This document shows, in pieces, positions 4,320-64,000 of a stretch of DNA of 64,000 bases. The notes below the pieces were generated by a model that did not search any database, was not told the origin of the DNA, and saw only the letters and a list, made by a program, of their open reading frames with translations. Made by a program: the position numbers and the translations under genes. Location: the NCBI RefSeq assembly GCF_039654945.1, contig NW_027361741.1, positions 7,998,001-8,062,000 of the forward strand, written 5' to 3'. The DNA comes from Dendrobates tinctorius. Taxonomy: Eukaryota. Numbering within the stretch: position 1 is the first letter of the stretch; each line of letters starts with the position of its first letter.

Positions 4320-5808
4320 CACTGCTCAAAAAAATAAAGGGAACACTAAAATACCACATCCTAGATATCACTGAATGAAATATTCCAATTGCAAATCTTT
4401 ATTCATTGCATAGTGGAATTCGTTGAGAACAATAAAACATAAAATTGATCAATGTAAGTCAAAATGAATATTTCATGGAGATCTGTATGTGGAATGATAC
4501 TCAAAATTAAAGTGGAAAATCAAATTACAGGTTGATCCAACTTCAGTGGAAATACCTCAAGACAAGGAAACGTGTGTGTGGCCTCCATGTGCCTGTATGA
4601 CCTCCCTACAACGCCTGGGCATGCTCCTGATGAGATCTCCTCCCATACCTGGACTAAAGAATCCGCCAACTCCTGGAAGTCTGTGGTGCAAACGTTACGT
4701 TGGTGGATGGTGCGAGACATGATATCCCAGATGTGTTCAATCGGATTCAGGTCTGGGGAACGGGTGGGCCATCCATAGCTTCAATGCCTTCGTCTTGCAG
4801 GAACTGCTGACACACTCCAGCCACATGAGGTCTGACATTGTCCTGCATTAGGAGGAACCCAGTGCCAACTGCACCAGCATATGGTCTCACAAGGGGACTG
4901 AGGATCTCATCTCGGTATCTAATGGCAGTCTGGCTACCTTTGGCGAGCACATGGAGGGCTGTGCGGCCCTACAAATAAATGCCACCCCACACCATTACTG
5001 ACCCACTGCCAAACCGGTCATGCTAAAGGATGTTGCAGGCAGCAGATCGCTCTCCACGGCATCTCGAGACTCTGTCACGTCTGTCACATGTACTCAGTGT
5101 GAACCTGCCTTCATCAGTGAAGAGCACAGGGCGCCAGTGGTGAATTTGCCAATCCTGGTGTTCTGTGGCAAATACCAAGCGTCCTGCACGGTGCTGGGCT
5201 GTAAGCACAACCCCATCTGTGGACATCAGGCACTCGGACCATCCTCATGGAGTCGGTTTCTAACCGTTTGTGCAGACACATGCACATTTGTGGCCTACTG
5301 GAGGTCATTGGTGGTGCTGCTGCTGGGTTGTTGCCCTCCTACGGCCCCCTCCACATCTCCTGGTGTACTGGCCTGTCTCCTGGTAGTGCCTCCAGCCTCT
5401 GGACACTACGCTGACAGACACTGCAGACCTTCTTGCCACAGCTCTCATTGATGTGCCATCCTGGATGAGCTGCACTACCTGAGCCACTTGTGTGGGTTGT
5501 AGAGTCCGTCTCATGCTACCACAAGTGTGAAAGCACAACTAAAATTCAAAAGTGACCAAAACATCAGCCAGAAAGCCTTGGTACTCAGATGTAGTCTGTG
5601 GTCCCCACCTGCAGAACCACTCCTTTATTGAGTGTGTCTTGATAATTGCCAATAATTTCCACCTGTTTTTTTCCATTTGCACAACAGCATGTGAAATTGA
5701 TTGTCAAACAGTGTTGCTTCCTAAGTGGACAGTTTGATTTCACAGAAGTTTGATTTACTTGGAGTTATATTCTGTTGTTTAAGTGTTCCCTTTTTTTTTT
5801 GAGCAGTG
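4320..5808 (-). mobile_element. Tc1/mariner transposon (DD34E), both TIRs present, transposase frameshifted
   Basis: TIRs CACTGCTCAAAAAAATAAAGGGAACACT ... AGTGTTCCCTTTTTTTTTTGAGCAGTG, flanked by TA. Fragments: HTH ([10 protein letters not shown]), VLFTDE, QDNVRPH and SPDLNPIE. Confidence 0.95.
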
Positions 5809-54595: not shown

Positions 54596-55017
54596 TATAT
54601 ATATACACATACACGTCTGTATGAGGAGAAATATATATACACATCTGTTGTGAATTCGCTTTCTGGCCTACCTCTGGTTACTAGTGAAGGTAATGGAGCT
54701 GGTTATATTGACAGAGGGGTCATGAGTTCTCTTTCTGGGCTCCCTCTAGTGGTTACCAGAGGTAATGGAGCTGATCTGATTGACAGAGGCTTGCCACCTG
54801 ATAATGAGGAGGACGATTGGATAGGATGATTGGAGATCTGGAGTTTCTGACTGGATTTGAGACAGCCGACTCCCTCTATCCCTGCTGGTGATTTTTTCCT
54901 GCCTCCTGAGGTCTTAGTTTCCAGCTCAGTCCCTGCAAGCTCAGCTAAGTGTTCTTTTGCTATTGTTGACATTTGATTTGGTTTTGTCTATTTCAGTTTT
55001 GTGTGCTCAGCCAGCTC

Positions 55018-58000
55018 TGTTATGATTGAGTCACCGTAGGAGGCAAAAATAGAAATGCAAGCTAAGTCCAGAAAACCAGAGAAGTTGGCAGCTATCGGAT
55101 TGCAGACCCCTGAACCTATCAACACAACTAGCAGTAGCCGTGGGGGGCTCCTACGATGCCCTAGGCCCCTCGATCACAGCCGGAGGACTACATAGCCTAA
55201 AGACAGAAAGGGAAATCTAAACTGCCCCAGAGCAGACCCCCAAAGCAAAAGGCAGCCCCCCACATATAATGACGGTGAAGCAAGAAGAAAGAACAAAACA
55301 CAGACAGAAAGATAGACTGAGCAAAGATGGGGCCCACGCTAGCTTAGATAGGTAAGGACAGGAAGGCTGCTGTCTGCAATCCGTGAAAAAACCCTATGAA
55401 AATAAGAGCCAACAAACTGACAGTAAAAAAGGCCCTGAAGATGCTAGGCTTCAAAAAAGCTATGTCAGTACTCAGGAATATTCTGAAGACAGAGCAACAG
55501 GCAAAAGGAGATTCAGCTCACCCCAGCAGGGAATGGCAGAATCCAGAAAAGCAAGGAAAACAAAACACTAATGCAAAAAGGCAAAGCAGAAATCTTAGCT
55601 TTAGATGAGCAGGAATTATGAGCAGCCTTATATCCAGTCATTAACTCCAATCAGCCAGTCATCATCATCAGCCCCAGGTGTTTGACAATCAGGCTCACTA
55701 CCTTTCTTCACCAGAAGAGGGAGTTCCTCGGGCCTCAGTAGTGAAGGAGAAAATGAACTCACAACAGTACCTCCCCCTTGAGGAGGGGTCACCGAACCCT
55801 CAACCACGCCACCAGGGCGATCAGGGTGAGCCCGATGAAAGGCACGCACCAATCTTTTGGCATGAATATCAGAGGCAGAGACCCAGGAATTATCCTCCTG
55901 ACCATAACCCTTCCACTTAACCAAATACTGGAGTCTCCGTCTAGCCAGACGGGAATCCAGTACTTTCTCTACCTCATATTCCATGTTACCTTCAACCAAT
56001 ACAGGGTCTGGAGGTACAGCCCCCGGAACAACAGGTTAAACAAACCTCTTCAACAAAGATTTATGGAACACATTATGAATTTTAAATGTGACAGGAAGAG
56101 CCAAACGAAAAGAGACCGGATTAATAATTTCCATAATCTTGTAAGGTCCAATAAATCTAGGCTTAAACTTAGGAGAAGCCACCTTCATAGCAATATTTTT
56201 TGATGATAACCACACCATATCACCAACCTTAAATTGGGGACCAATGGTCCTATGTCGGTTGGAAAACCGCTGGGCCTTTTCCTGGGAGAGAGATAACTTA
56301 TCCACCACTTGGTCCCAGATCTGGTGCATTCTCTCCACCACAGTGTCAACCCCTGGGCAGGCAGAGGGCTCCACCTGCCCTGAAGAAAATCGAGGATGAA
56401 ACCCAAAGTTACAAAAAAAAGGAGACATCAAAGTGGCAGAACTAGCTCTATTATTTAAAGCAAATTCGGCCAAGGGCAAAAATGAAACCCAATCATCCTG
56501 ATCAGCAGAAATAAAACATCTCAAATATGACTCCAAGGTCTGGTTTGTTCTCTCTGTCTGCCCATTGATCTGAGGGTGAAAAGCAGAGGAGAAGGACAAC
56601 TGAATTCACAGCTTGGAACAGAAAGTTCTCCAAAATCTAGACACAAACTGGACTCCTCTGTCAGATACAATGTTCTCAGGAATCCCGTGCAAGCGAACCA
56701 CCTGTTGTAAAAACAGGGGCACCAATTCAGAGGAAGACGGCAACTTAGGGAGTGGTACAAGATGAACCATCTTAGAGAACCTATCACAAATCACCCAAAT
56801 AACAGTCATCCTTTGAGAGACAGGCATATCAGAGATGAAATCCATTGAAATATGGGTCCATGGCCTCTTGGGGACAGGCAAAGGCATCAACAACCCACTA
56901 GAGCGAGAACACGATTTAGACCGGGAGCACGTCCCACAGGACTGCACAAAATTCCTGACATCACGAGACAAGGAGGGCCACCAAAAAGACCGACTCACCA
57001 GATCTCTAGTACCAAAAATACCTGGATGACCAGCCAAAGCAGAGCAATGAACTTCAGACATCACTCTCTTCTTCCACTGGTCAGGAACATACAACTTTCC
57101 ACTGGGACAACGCTCAGGTTTGTCCTCCTGGAACTCTTCCAGAGCACGTCTCAAATCGGGCGAGATGGCAGAAAGAACTACCCCTTCGCCTAAGATGGTA
57201 GCAGGCTTGGTCACCACAGGAGAATCAGCAAAGAAGCTCCTAGTGAGGGCGTCAGCCTTGACATTCTTAGTTCCAGGAAGAAAAGAAACCACAAAATCAA
57301 AACGTGTAAAAAACAAGGCCCACCTAGCCTGTCTAGGGTTCAAGCGCTTAGCCGACTCTAGGTAAATCAAATTCTTGTGGTCAGTGAGGACCACGACTTC
57401 ATGCTTAGCTCCCTCCAAACAATGTCTCCACTCCTCAAATGCCCATTTCATGGCTAACAGTTCCCGATTCCCCACATCACAGTTACGTTCAGATGGAGAG
57501 AACTTTCGGGAAAAGAAAGCACAGGGATTCATTTTAGATGTTACAGGATCCTTTTGGGACAAAACAGCTCCTGCACCAATCTCAGAAGCATCCACCTCTA
57601 CCTGGAATGGAAGTGAGACATCAGGTTGCCGCAAAACCGGGGCGGAGGTGAATCTTCGCTTCAGCTCCTGAAAGGAAGAAACAGCCTCCGGAGACCAATT
57701 TAACACATCAGCACCCTTCTTAGTCAAATCAGTCAATGGCTTGGCAATACTAGAAAATTTTGCTATAAATTTCCGATAAAAATTAGCAAAACCCAAAAAC
57801 TTCTGGAGGGCCTTCAAAGAAGTGGGCTGAACCCAATCGTAAATGGCCTGTACCTTGGCCGGGTCCATTTCAATAGTTGACGGGGACAAAATAAATCCCA
57901 AAAAAGAAATCCTCTGTACTCCAAAAAGGCATTTAGATCCTTGACATACAGGGAATTCTCCCTCAAGATCCGGAACACAGTCCGAATATGTTCCACATGA

Positions 58001-60727
58001 GAATCCCAATCCTTGGAGAAGATCAAAATATCATCCAGATAGATAATCAAAAATTTATCGACAAAATCTCGGAAAATATCGTTCATGAAGCACTGGAAGA
58101 CAGAAGGGTCATTATTGAGCCCAAAAGGCATCACCAGGTACTCAAAATGTCCCTCCGGAGTATTAAACGCCGTCTTCCATTCATCCCCATGCTTAATGCG
58201 AATAAGATTATACGCCCCCCTATGGTCAAGCTTGGTAAACCAGCAAGCACCTTTAACTCTGGAGAATAGATCAGAAATCAGGGGTAACGGATACTGATAT
58301 TTAACAGTAATTTTGTTGAGAGCACGATAATCAATACAAGGTCTTAATGATCCATCCTTTTTGGCTACAAAAAAAACCCGGCACCTAAGGGTGACGAGGA
58401 TGGTCTAATATGACCCTTCTCCAACGCCTCCTTAATATAGGATCGCATAGCTTCGTGCTCGGGTACAGATAAATTGAAGAGCCGACCCTTGGGAAATTTA
58501 CACCCCGGGCTCAGTTCAATAGCACAGTCATAACTCCTATGAGGAGGCAGAGACGCAGACTCATTCTCACTAAATACATCATAAAAGTCCGCCAAATAAT
58601 CAGGAACATCATGCGACTGAGGAGAGGTGGAAAACACCGGAGCCTCACTAAAGGCACACCGACAACCCCAACTCACCACAGACACAGATTTCCAATCCAA
58701 AACTGGATTATGAATTTGTAACCAGGGAAACCCCAGAACAATAGTATCATGCAGATTATGTAACACCAAAAACCTGCAATTTTCTTGATGGTCTGGGGCG
58801 ACACGCATTACCACCTGGGTCCAAAACTGAGGTTTATTTTTAGCCAAAGGAGTAGCATCAATCCCCCTCAAAGGGATAGGCGTCTGCAGAGGTGTCATTG
58901 GAAACCCACAACGTTTAGCAAAATCCAAGTCCATTAGGTTTAGAGCTGCTCCCGAATCCACAAAAGCCTTGGCGGAAAATGTGGACAGGGAGCAGATCAG
59001 AGTAATAGCCTGAAGAAACTTAGGTTGAACACAACCAACAGAAAACGTGTGTGCAAAGCGTTTCTCGCGTTTAGGACAGACAGAAATAATATGCGAGGCA
59101 TCTCCACAGAAAAAACACAACTTATTACGCCTTCTGAACTCCTGACGCTGCTCTCTGGAAAAAACTCTATCACATTGCATAGGTTCAGACATCTGTTCAA
59201 CAGGTGGCAACACCTCTCGTGCAGCTCTGCGTTCGCGTAAACGCCGATCAACCTGAATGGCTAAAGACATAGAATCGTCAAGACCAGAGGGAACAGGAAA
59301 TCCCACCATAGTATCTTTTATGGCTTCTGACAACCCCTTCCGAAAGAGAGCAGCCAAGGCATTATCATTCCAGGTAGTAAGTACTGCCCACTTTCGGAAT
59401 TTTTGACAGTACAATTCTGCAGAATCACGACCCTGGTTCAATGCCAGCAGGGTCTTTTCAGCCTGATCAATGGCATTAGGTTCGTCATACAACAACCCCA
59501 AGGCCTGAAAAAATGCGTTCACATTAGTCAGAATAGGATCATCTGGTTTCAAAGATCGCCACGCAGCAAAGAGATGACAATTTTAACCTGCTGCGCGGAG
59601 CTCCCTGACGAGTTAGGCTTCAAGGCAAAAAATAATTTACAATTATTTTTGAAATTCAAAAATTTAGACCGATCCCCAAAAAATACATCAGGTGTAGGAA
59701 TCTTTGGTTCAGCAGCATGTGAATGAGCAAGGTAGGTGGAAATTCCCCGCACTTCCGCAGCGAGCTGCTCCACACGATCAGACAATTGCTTTATCTCCAT
59801 TGAGAGAAAAAAAAATTCCCCCTACGGCCTCAGAGATATAGAGGAAAAAATATACACACTTTTTTTTTTTTAATACAATTCTTTCCTGCTATTGAGTACC
59901 CTAGAATCTGCGGTATGGCGGGTGATTCTGTTATGATTGAGTCACCGTAGGAGGCAAAAATAGAAATGCAAGCTAAGTCCAGAAAACCAGAGAAGTTGGC
60001 AGCTATCGGATTGCAGACCCCTGAACCTATCAACACAACTAGCAGTAGCCGTGGGGGGCTCCTACGATGCCCTAGGCCCCTCGATCACAGCCGGAGGACT
60101 ACATAGCCTAAAGACAGAAAGGGAAATCTAAACTGCCCCAGAGCAGAACCCAAAGCAAAAGGCAGCCCCCCACATAAAATGACGGTGAAGCAAGAAGAAA
60201 GAACAAAACACAGACAGAAAGATAGACTGAGCAAAGCTGGGGCCCACGCTAGCTTAGATAAGAGAGGACAGGAAGGCTGCTGTCTGCAATCCGTGAAAAA
60301 ACCCTATGAAAATAAGAGCCAACAAACTGACAGTAAAAAAGGCCCTGAAGACGCTTGGCTTCAAAAAAGCTATGTCAGTACTCAGGAATATTTTGAAGAC
60401 AGAGCAACAGGCAAAAGGAGATTCAGCTCACCCCAGCAGGGAATGGCAGAATCCAGAAAAGCAAGGAAAACAAAACACTAATGCAAAAAGGCAAAGCAGA
60501 AATCTTAGCTTTAGATGAGCAGGAATCAGACTGGTTTCCTAGAAGTCCACAGAGAACTCACCCGAAGGCCAGAAGGGCGTCGGCAGCCTTATATCCAGTC
60601 ATTAACTCCACTCAGCCAGTCATCATCATCATCCCCAGGTGTTTGACAATCAGGCTCACTACCTTTCTTCACCAGAAGAGGGAGTTCCTCGGGCCTCAGT
60701 AGTGAAGGGGAAAATGAACTCACAACA
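55018..60727 (-). mobile_element. Ty3/Gypsy chromovirus, full length, copy B
   Basis: 5' LTR 60727-59929; 3' LTR 55766-55018 (~50-bp deletion). TSD CAGCTC. Same protein domains as copy A. Confidence 0.98.
55628..59800 (-). pseudogene. gag-pol polyprotein of copy B (several lesions)
   Basis: ORF pieces 59800-59549, 59552-58365, 58134-57814, 58009-56606, 56599-56036 and 55999-55628 are collinear with copy A. Confidence 0.95.
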
Positions 60728-61515
60728 CAGCTCCGGCTGGGACTGTGCTGAATCTCCATCCATATGTTACTGCTTGTGCCAGTTTATTTTTGCCCCTTAT
60801 TAGATTGGCCTCTTTTGCGCTGCTTTCAGAATATACCAGAGTGCTGAAATAGGTGGCAAAGTCATGCGACTTCAGTATTTTTCTATCAGACGTGTTGGAC
60901 ATTTTTGCAGGGTTTTTTGCGTGATTGCAGACAGTGTCTTTCCTTTCCTGTCCTGTCTAGTTAGTGTGGGCCCCATTGCTTGCTCAGTCTATTTTCCTAC
61001 CTGCGTTTTTGCTTTCATCTTGTCTCACCGACAATATATGTTTAGGGGCTATCTATTCCTTTGGGGTCTGCTCTGGGGCAGTTTAGATTTCCCCTTTCTT
61101 GCTTTAGGCTTATTTAGCTCTCTGGCTTTGTCGAAGCGTCTAGGATCATCGTAGGTACGCTCCACGGCTACTGCTAGTTGTGTGGATAGGATCGGGGGTC
61201 TGCAATCTGCTTAGTTGCAAACCTCTCTGAGTTTTTATATTGAAGGGAAAAGGGGAATTGTATTGTAAACGCATGAGACTCATGTGGTTTTTTTTGGGGG
61301 GGTTTTGGGGTTTTTTGTGTGTTTTTTTGGGTTTTTTTTGTGTCTCAAGCGTTTTCAATTCTATAATATATACTGGGTCGGTTGCCTTTACATGTAGATG
61401 GTTTGACGGTACTCTTTGGTTTATTTGCGGTTCACATTGAGTTAATTTATCAGGTGCATACTGATTTGTCTTCAGTTCCTAGCGCAGGATATATGGTTGG
61501 GAATTTTTAGTATGT

Positions 61516-61560
61516 GGTCATTATGAGTAAGACTCTGTTGAGTTGAAACACGTAAATGCC
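61516..61560 (+). ncRNA. Minimal hammerhead-ribozyme-like motif in the pLTR
   Basis: CATT-ATGAGTAA-GACTC-tgtt-GAGTT-GAAACACGTA-AATG. Confidence 0.55.
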
Positions 61561-61833
61561 TGTCTTCACCATGGTTTTTTAACCTGAATCCTGCTTTTGG
61601 TTTTTTAATGAAGATTTCTCAATAAAGATTCTATTTTTAAGTAAGAAGATGTGCTGGAATATTTGGATCTTTGCATTTATGTCAGCTTGTGACATTTCCT
61701 AGCACCTTCATCAAAGAACTGCCTCCAACGTGACAAGTAAAAAAGGTGAGCTGAATATATTCGTTTTTTGGACTTTGCAAGCTTTTTTTTGTGCTCCCTT
61801 TTAAGAGAACTGTGTTTTCTATTATAATATAAC

Positions 61834-62694
61834 ATGGATACTAATGTTGGGGCAGAGTCAACTTTTACTATTACTAATGAGGAACCAGATGATTTTTTCA
61901 CTGTGAACAATGCAACCAGACTCAGCAAAATGACTGCACTTTTCAATAAGGAAATTCTCATCCCAGATGATACCTCTAACCTTAAGAACAATATGAGGGA
62001 GTTGGAAAAATATATGGTCGTACGCCTTAAACTTTGGTGGGATAGCCATACTCTCCAACAATTTCTAGAAAGGAACATGATTCCAAGGGGTCTGCGTCTT
62101 AGGAAAAGACCTACACAGAACCTGGATGATTCTTTTCTTGAACAATGGGATTCTATCTTGAGTCAATGCTCAAATAGACTTATGGAATTGATTGTAAAAT
62201 ATGAAACCAAGAAAATGCAGTCACTTGAAAAGTCTATTAAAGAACTGGAGATATCAATACAAGATCATAAAGATACGGAGAATTATCGCATTTTAAAAAA
62301 GAACATCAATGAGAATTTGGGTAAACTTGAGGATTCAATTGCTCAGTTGAAATAGAAAAAATTTAAAAGGGATATTCGTGATTATGAAAATAATAAAATT
62401 TATAACTGGCATAAGAATAAAAGAGAAAAAAGAAATAAATCACCAAAACCGATTCTTAAATCGACTCATACAACTGTGCCGGCTGAACGGCGTGTGAGCT
62501 TCAGTTCTATAGAACCAATCTTCTCTGAAGGATTTTCTGACACCTCAGAGTCAGAAAGGGAGGTAGAAGTGGTTTCTATTAACAATCAATCTTCAAAAAA
62601 CGGACTGCCACAAAGAAGTCCAAAAGAACCAGACGGGCAGGACGCAAACATAAGAAAATGTACTCACGGATATCCGACTCGGAAAAACAAATAA
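61834..62694 (+). pseudogene. Penelope-like ORF1 (~286 codons, one internal TAG at 62353)
   Basis: LWWD..L..FL....IPRGLR motif, a predicted coiled coil, then K*KKFKRD..DY and a basic/Ser-acidic tail, all in one frame. Confidence 0.7.
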
Positions 62695-64000
62695 ATAACT
62701 GTTCACAAGAACATACTGTTTTGAATCTCTCGGCTACCATTCTGCTGGAGTCTGATATAAGACTTTTAAAAAAAGGACTGAATTTTGTGCCTAAAAAGGA
62801 CTTTGACCTTTTGCATACCATGATGGATATTAACAAATTTGTCCGTAAGATCACTGTTAAAAAACATTATTATAATGAAGAAAGTCTTAACAAGTCTCCT
62901 AGCTGTAATTGGACTAAGTTTTTTTCTAATGATTTGCTTACTTTTCCTGAACAGATTAGTGTCATGAATTTGGAGTCATGTATAGAAAATGAGCTTAAGG
63001 TGGACGAAAAAATTTTTTGTACTAGAGTTCCTAACCCTCAGTTCTATCCTACACAATCAAGGACCCCCAGTATGGATGATTTCCAGTATTTGGTTGAGTC
63101 TGAACTTCTCAATCTAGTTTTAATCTCTCTAAAGCTGAACAAGACTCATTGAAAAAACTACAGGTTAATCCTAATATCAATATTAAAAATTCTGATAAAG
63201 GGGTTTCTGTGGTTGTGTTGGATAGGGGTTTATATGAACGAGAGATTTACATGATGCTGGAAGATACTAACATCTATATGCATTTGAATCATGATCCTAC
63301 AGAACGAATTAGGGGCTTTTTAAAGTCCTTATTATCAGAAGGTGTTTTTTTGGGGATTATTAATCAAAAGCAGTGTGATTTTTTTTCAGCCTGATTATAT
63401 ACAAACACCATTGTTTCATGCATTTCCTAAAACACATAAGTCCATTTTTCCACCCCCACTACGTCCAATAGTGTCGGGTATTAACTCGTTGACTGAGCAT
63501 CTTGGCGAGTGGTTGGATGACAGGTTAAAACCAATTTCGTACCGATCACCTAGTTATATCAGGGACTCCAAGCATGTTTTGAATCTGGTACATAATCTTG
63601 AATGGTCTGAGAATTATCAATGGCTGACATGTGACATTGCATCCCTATATTCCTCAATTCCTCACAGTTTGGCTCTTATGGCTTTAAGAGACCAACTTGA
63701 GAAATATTCTTGCTATACCCCAGATCACCAGGATTTTATCATCAGTGTTACAAATTTTCTTTTGAAAAATAATTATTTTATGTTTCTTAAGAAATTTTAT
63801 TTACAGATTCAAGGTTGTGCAATGGGGGCCAAATTTAGCCCCTACCTGGCTATTATTTTTATGAATTGGTTTGAACAACAGTATATATATAGTGATTTAA
63901 ATCCTTTTTTGGATAGCATCTATATTTATACACGTTATATTGATGATGTCCTGGTGATCTGGAGGGGTGACAAAATTGAAATTAGTGCATTTATTGCATA
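62583..64000 (+). pseudogene. Penelope-like ORF2 (reverse transcriptase), frameshifted near 63150 and 63390
   Basis: The -1 frame is open from 62583. PLE RT motifs continue through YIDD at ~63936-63947. Confidence 0.85.

Follow-up and report, generated by a model that had tools for sequence, protein, structure and literature searches.

How is a reverse transcriptase (RT) made when its reading frame lies at -1 relative to the ORF upstream of it and overlaps the end of that ORF? This question is raised by a retroelement located at the 3' end of the window, which denotes here the whole stretch of 64,000 nt of Dendrobates tinctorius that was analysed (assembly GCF_039654945.1, contig NW_027361741.1, positions 7,998,001 to 8,062,000 of the forward strand). 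From the sequence comparisons presented below, we consider it very probable that the RT frame is reached by programmed -1 ribosomal frameshifting, which would yield a minority fusion of ORF1, RT and endonuclease (EN).

The best reading of the element is that of a decayed copy of a Neptune-type Penelope-like retrotransposon (PLE), with all of its parts on the plus strand. It starts with a 5' pseudo-LTR (61226-61772) that repeats the element's own 3' end, found past the window at 92% identity (5016-5574 of locus L039, which carries the same copy further downstream), and that also matches the termini of other copies. Inverted pseudo-LTRs (L032, L035) and tandem units (L077, L078), a trait of EN+ PLEs, were encountered as well. 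ORF2, which encodes the RT, opens at 62583 and extends past the window's last position (64000); it is broken near 63108 and 63379, in agreement with the other frameshifts that the preliminary description had announced for this copy, and it matches RVT_1 at 63324-63998 (E 6.5e-9). Past the window, an insertion of ~970 nt is followed in the same copy by a Cys linker and a GIY-YIG match, the latter under the curated cut-off in L039 (E 9e-4) and over it in L033 of the same family (E 3.2e-5) as well as in L076; an RT followed by a C-terminal GIY-YIG is again a trait of EN+ PLEs. The linker that connects RT to EN, of the form CX2-5CxxC, reads CGHKTCGAC in both L039 and L033, and the pattern is present in 24 of 29 families of this genome; the parts of PMC8557442 that deal with the motif give it as common to Neptune and Nematis. 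The Cys linker and the C-terminal GIY-YIG therefore place the element with Neptune-type PLEs, as these are described in the relevant sections of PMC8557442 and PMC3846280. In place of the one ORF that canonical EN+ PLEs have, the window's family and 21 others have two overlapping frames. An Rfam search of 60500-64000 gave zero matches at E<=1, hammerhead included, with the proviso that minimal PLE hammerheads may be missed. Upstream of the element, the window also holds an LTR retrotransposon on the minus strand (55016-60727; LTRs 96-98% identical and ~4.9 kb apart, gag/protease-like frames) and an inverted LTR-like piece, ~76% identical, that adjoins the PLE (60812-61207).

ORF1 has 286 codons (61834-62694), from an ATG at 61834 to a TAA at 62692-62694, and is interrupted by one TAG (62353-62355) attributable to decay, the codon being CAG in 13 of 16 other copies and TAG in one. 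The last stop of the -1 frame ahead of the slip site is a TAA at 62580-62582, also TAA in 16 of 21 other copies. From 62583 to 62694 the two frames overlap by 112 nt, ORF1 stop included, very near the ~110 nt first estimated; the overlap is 106-136 nt in the three nearest other families. Within it, the heptamer A_AAA_AAC (62595-62601) lies 12 nt past the opening of the -1 frame, 90 nt before the ORF1 stop and in the X_XXY_YYZ phase of ORF1. The preliminary description was thus accurate as to the extent of ORF1 with its TAG, the opening of the RT frame, and the place and phase of the heptamer. It had also ended the RT-frame ORF at 63152, but that end exists only because this copy, and no other, has lost 19 nt at 63108: 16 of 17 other copies have 19 more nt there, and the 17th has 18 more. 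Downstream of the heptamer, the -1 frame encodes the motif RRAGRK (62631-62648), ahead of any AUG, then VLNLS...GLNFVP (62718-62792), a conserved N-terminal motif of the RT protein present in 75 of the 81 loci examined, and further on the RVT_1 match.

With such an arrangement, translation would end at 62692 for most ribosomes, the product being a helical protein of 286 aa whose tail is charged. A minority would slip on A_AAA_AAC, tRNA-Lys and tRNA-Asn re-pairing one base back, and would go on to make an ORF1-RT-EN fusion of ~1,100 aa. In the tandem-slippage model, the product across the site reads ...SKN-RTATK, instead of the ...SKK-RTATK that had been proposed. A_AAA_AAC is among the heptamers given as most shifty for mammalian ribosomes in the part of PMC5009743 that covers them. 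Heptamers of this kind occur in 103 of 1014 (10%) window-by-phase tests of ORF2 bodies, so that the heptamer of one copy alone is weak evidence, and it is the comparison of families that raises it above chance. Moreover, it is an A-rich string within an A-rich, lysine-rich region, which counts against frameshifting.

A DNA search of the same genome gave 29 other matches to the window's family, 22 of which cover the heptamer (L023 and L024 are near-duplicates). The site is A6C in 13 of these 22 copies, A6T in 5, A7 in 2 and substituted in 2. That the family consensus might be one continuous ORF, with A7 instead of A6, had been considered at the outset; the family has A6 (A6C/T in 18 of 22, A7 in 2 of 22) and two frames. 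ORF1 ends with TAA or TGA in 21 of 25 copies and is uninterrupted in copy L033. Since the heptamer and the stop are kept in the family and the TAG and the break at 63108 are not, the two-frame layout is a family trait and the other breaks are the copy's own.

The comparison was extended by four protein searches of the genome, each listing 136-150 places. Eighty loci were hand-picked for different open-frame lengths and families, not at random; 79 were analysed, the repeat-interrupted locus L095 being left out, and two copies of the window's family brought the set to 81, of which six without a VxNLS match were dropped from classing. Among the 75 classifiable loci, the RT is at -1 in 56, in frame in 15 and at +1 in 4, the last all belonging to families that are otherwise -1 or fused. 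An in-phase heptamer lies inside the overlap in 51 of the 56 loci with the RT at -1; in four of the five misses (L111, L118, L137, L140) the heptamer is there but the -1 frame meets a premature stop after it, and the fifth, L135, has no heptamer. Cutting at 70% ORF1-core identity gave 29 families, and in 22 of them at least one copy has its RT-endonuclease frame at -1 to ORF1. The frame change together with an in-phase heptamer recurs in 21 of these 22 families of the same genome, where the heptamer lies before the RT N-terminus, 87-174 nt upstream of VxNLS. It is A_AAA_AAC/T in 12 families and T_TTT_TTA in 9, against a background of ~10%, and both types occupy the same position in the X_XXY_YYZ phase with Z other than G. 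In 20 clean families, the heptamer is in the ribosomal phase in all 20, and the other two phases hold one in 2 and 0 families; these 20 were selected for having a heptamer, the non-circular count being 21 of 22. L076, L077, L078, L080 and L086 have an unbroken ORF2 of 843-856 aa, and young near-identical copies, some of them in tandem, with both ORFs unbroken and at -1 were found for L076-L078, L086, L102, L106, L107, L113, L117, L141 and L154. RT identity across families is only ~30-55%. Some or all copies of the L076 and L084 families have a second in-phase A_AAA_AAC, and nearly identical members of the L088 family are densely clustered at 36.4-40.0 Mb of G000:C39 and on C345.

In the RT tree, all A6 families form one clade (99), and the T6 families fall in two places, one of them mixed with fused families. 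Given this shared ancestry, the families are not independent, and 21 of 22 does not mean 21 independent events. The tree comes from a quick search with SH-aLRT support only, is midpoint-rooted and holds 67 of 79 rows (12 being too short) from families of this genome only; it supports no order of events.

Evidence at the protein level comes from public databases. A full HMMER search gave 1086 clusters related to ORF1 at E<=0.001. Among the best 150 of these 1086, 96 are 225-345 aa long, and the 92 without RT motifs were used as stand-alone homologues (58 dropped for length or RT motifs). In the stretch 12-50 aa before the end of these 92 proteins, FL is found 18 times where 2.2 are expected (z 11) and KN 45 times where 17.8 are expected (z 7.2). 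These are the top two of 400 dipeptides there, and they are the translations of the T6A and A6C/T heptamers, respectively. One or the other is present in 60 of the 92 homologues; shuffled sequences gave 19.6, and 32 at most. Read the other way round, as NK and LF, the pairs showed no enrichment in the same stretch of the same proteins. Where named, the 30 homologues looked up are "uncharacterized" or "hypothetical" frog proteins, including those of Xenopus laevis and Ascaphus truei. A word-indexed protein search with ORF1, which is weak evidence, returned one match of similar length and none among longer proteins.

Downstream of the slip site, the two short pairings of the preliminary description, GGACT/AGTCC and CTGCC/GGCAG, do exist as weak alternative 5-bp pairings (62602-62640; spacers 0 and 3), a candidate stimulator at most. 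Their conservation did not hold, the AGTCC arm being kept in 13 of 23 copies, and we rejected them as a conserved stimulator, the single two-sided change falling on CpG-decay positions. The consensus of seven copies of the window's family has the 5-bp CTGCC/GGCAG stem at spacer 3. When the downstream RNA of this family was compared with shuffles, z was 0.0 and -1.38, with no significant structure at a 5-10 nt spacer, and the best pseudoknot was equalled by 40% of shuffles. Stimulation in the window's family may be weak, which would give a low slip rate. Across families, z <= -2 was reached in only 3 of 20. In one A6 sub-clade, a stem begins 9 nt past the heptamer, and changes on both of its sides preserve the pairing (GCGGG/CCCGC in L138, GTGCC/GGCAC in L143, GCGGTGGG/CTCGCCGC in L141), a comparison for which 9 of 12 rows could be anchored and in which L136 and L140 pair less well. 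L141 (1084-1170) has a possible H-type pseudoknot of 8+9 bp, 9 nt past A_AAA_AAC (0 of 100 mononucleotide shuffles); candidates of the same type are listed for L148 and L151. L117 has an 8-bp hairpin at spacer 9 (z -3.0), weaker in its relatives L121 and L123. Two further arrangements were noticed: in L080, the heptamer is directly followed by GGTTCAGGA (1778-1786), which could pair with TCCTGAACC, its complement ~100 nt downstream, past the stop of ORF1, and in L088-L091 the inverted repeats GGATCTA/TAGATCC and GGGG/CCCC flank the slip site and could put it in a hairpin loop.

Could ORF2 be translated on its own, either from a spliced mRNA or, as LINE-1 ORF2 is, by ribosomes that re-initiate or start internally at an AUG of the RT frame, so that the heptamer would be a by-product of coding? 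We regard this as improbable. The window does have one RT-frame AUG before the conserved N-terminal motifs (62658-62660), which is not conserved (ATG in 13 of 23 copies) and lies downstream of the RRxG-type motif. This motif is found between heptamer and VxNLS in 19 of 21 families, whereas 18 of 21 have no Met in that interval, and in family L076 the first Met comes 28 aa after the start of VxNLS. Spliceosomal introns are possible in PLEs according to a passage of PMC3846280, and the portion of PMC12602865 describing a killifish Neptune gives it two non-overlapping ORFs with an AUG-started ORF2. Contigs of four runs, the kind of which is not on record and which show presence only, revealed no joint and no indel at the junction of the sister family L076, rare variants being dropped from such contigs; a search for RNA data sets containing this family listed none. 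Separate synthesis would also leave two different in-phase heptamers unexplained. In the same contigs (L076:700-4400), one joins the end of the element to its start, by tandem read-through or as a circle, and depth is much higher over the pseudo-LTR in run X2.

The same proteins would arise from transcriptional slippage, in which some mRNAs receive an extra A or U from the polymerase within the run of six and so carry a fused frame. Both heptamers are indeed six-base homopolymer runs, and A7 in 2 of 22 copies and T7 in L112 indicate that such insertions get fixed. Any phase would serve a polymerase, yet the ribosomal phase is the one used in 20 of 20 clean families versus 2 and 0 for the others; the base that follows the run does not vary freely, being C/T behind A6 and A behind T6, the stems of sister families stand at a ribosome-like spacer of 9 nt, and no heptamer insertion was listed in the four-run contigs on L076, from which rare variants are dropped. 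Slippage by the polymerase is therefore very unlikely. Least credible of all, and already largely refuted, is the view that an element with a single ORF suffered a decay lesion which its non-autonomous copies then inherited: other lesions are present in the window copy, single-ORF relatives exist and A-rich KR-rich blocks are described as prone to frameshift mutations in the section on Naiad PLEs of Craig et al. (PMC8557442), but the -1 layout is the rule in the young tandem copies with both ORFs unbroken and spans families whose RTs are ~30-55% identical, with +1 in just 4 of 75 loci.

The fusion expected from programmed frameshifting has a natural counterpart. Five families have a single ORF of 1030-1096 aa beginning with the ORF1 domain (32% identity, E 3e-25); since they encode both parts in one frame, an ORF1-RT fusion is a natural product. 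An A_AAA_AAT in phase is nevertheless found close to the border in two of these five true fused families, which counts against our interpretation of the heptamer. L108, L109 and L112 were considered as a further fused family and rejected, each having a different one-base insertion at or just after T_TTT_TTA and their relative L110 being -1; they were re-read as a T6A family with 845-1103 aa open, L112 carrying T7. A similar one-base insertion fuses ORF1 to the RT in L094 of family L076. One-base insertions at the slip site are possible routes from the frameshift to the fused layout. A splice-donor-like AG|GT(A/G)A lies exactly at the V of VINLS in the fused families and the T6 families beside them (L116-L135), 9 of 9 families taken together; in other T6 families (L096-L115) a comparable site, in the phase of ORF1, lies 13-29 nt further upstream, and 11 of 12 A6 families, the window's included, lack it. 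In one public cluster, a 242-aa protein ends ...NKLQR and a 405-aa protein continues ...NKLQVINLS, the two being otherwise one residue different, and public proteins (noted with P0125 and P0155) end at the donor-like border or just past it. This pattern suggests that fused families may make ORF1 alone by splicing. More tentatively still, though as a serious possibility, amphibian Neptunes might all make an excess of coiled-coil ORF1 over RT-endonuclease and have switched repeatedly between an A_AAA_AAC slip, a U_UUU_UUA slip and an in-frame fusion with the RT part spliced out at a donor on the ORF1/RT border.

What ORF1 itself might do was approached by structure prediction. AlphaFold2 (104 sequences) predicts helices at 26-38, 47-79, 99-145, 149-185 and 192-202 followed by a low-confidence tail (mean pLDDT 77); the modelled bundle spans about aa 47-185, and the tail, predicted to be disordered, alternates basic with acidic or Ser-rich blocks. 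Pfam, PDB sequence and fold searches assigned ORF1 to no family, a result that shows neither a new fold nor an absence of kin. Foldseek with the model found nothing at E<=0.001 in PDB or BFVD; the best ESM Atlas score, 0.76, is a lead only, and the best VIA Z was 8.6 (rmsd 5.3, 116 aligned), to generic three-helix bundles. The gag-pol-like expression advanced in the preliminary description stands as a functional analogy only, as no capsid fold was matched and no zinc knuckle was seen in ORF1. By this analogy, ORF1 is probably a structural RNA-packaging protein needed in excess.

The resemblance to retroviral gag-pro and gag-pol junctions extends to the heptamers, their phase, an upstream ORF that ends soon after and a -1 enzyme without its own AUG. 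A_AAA_AAC is the frameshift heptamer of MMTV and HTLV. U_UUU_UUA is given as that of HIV in the corresponding part of PMC5009743. Unlike retroviruses, the window element has a PLE-type RT, no capsid match, no ORF1 zinc knuckle, no protease or integrase, and no clear stimulator in its family. It is likely, on this comparison, that the junction works like a retroviral gag-pol one but sits in an endonuclease-bearing PLE.

Among PLEs, the RT, the CX2-5CxxC linker, the C-terminal GIY-YIG, the pseudo-LTRs and the tandem or inverted copies are those of the Neptune clade as portrayed in sections of PMC8557442 and PMC3846280. That PLEs are normally single-ORF, as had been stated, is right for canonical EN+ PLEs in the portions of PMC8557442 that describe them, and not for all PLEs, since the legend of Fig. 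1 there (Craig 2021) shows ORF1 as separable by a frameshift with a pseudoknot in some of them. In contrast to canonical EN+ PLEs, the element described here has an ORF1 of its own, whose frame differs from that of the RT and overlaps it, with the heptamer in phase. The precedent of the legend makes the finding less surprising. The wording there probably refers to the rotifer Athena/Terminon elements. Two-ORF PLEs share with ours a coiled-coil ORF1 upstream of a PLE RT and a frameshift joint, with a pseudoknot in one sister family here, a likeness in layout to what the PMC8557442 legend describes. Two-ORF PLEs are presented as EN-less in the relevant passage of PMC6431247. Athena and Coprina lack the endonuclease and are telomeric, whereas the window element has a GIY-YIG and is dispersed. 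The lines of PMC3905857 on Penelope-like ORF1p note an esterase and mention no frameshift. The killifish Neptune repeat.CL27 has, in the part of PMC12602865 devoted to it, an ORF1 of unknown similarity and an ORF2 with RT and GIY-YIG as here, but its ORFs are AUG-started and do not overlap, and the word "frameshift" is absent from the main text. The available portions of PMC11167929, PMC5408684 and bioRxiv 10.64898/2026.07.22.740005 contain nothing on Neptune frameshifting, and we found no paper describing -1 frameshifting in vertebrate Neptune elements; Terminon 2017, Athena 2007, Arkhipova 2006, Repbase entries and the supplements of PMC8557442 may already state it.

To conclude, our results point to a conserved retrovirus-style frameshift across dozens of vertebrate families, which would imply a ratio-controlled structural protein for RNP building. 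Substrates for testing it are at hand in the young unbroken copies, the two heptamer types and the natural fused controls. There are consequences for annotation too: databases list the ORF1 proteins as "uncharacterized" frog genes, and a frameshift of this kind would be mistaken for decay. Should amphibian Neptunes indeed all make ORF1 in excess by the three routes proposed above, ORF1 would be an undescribed structural RNP protein of telomerase-related retroelements, parallel in function to Gag and to LINE-1 ORF1p.
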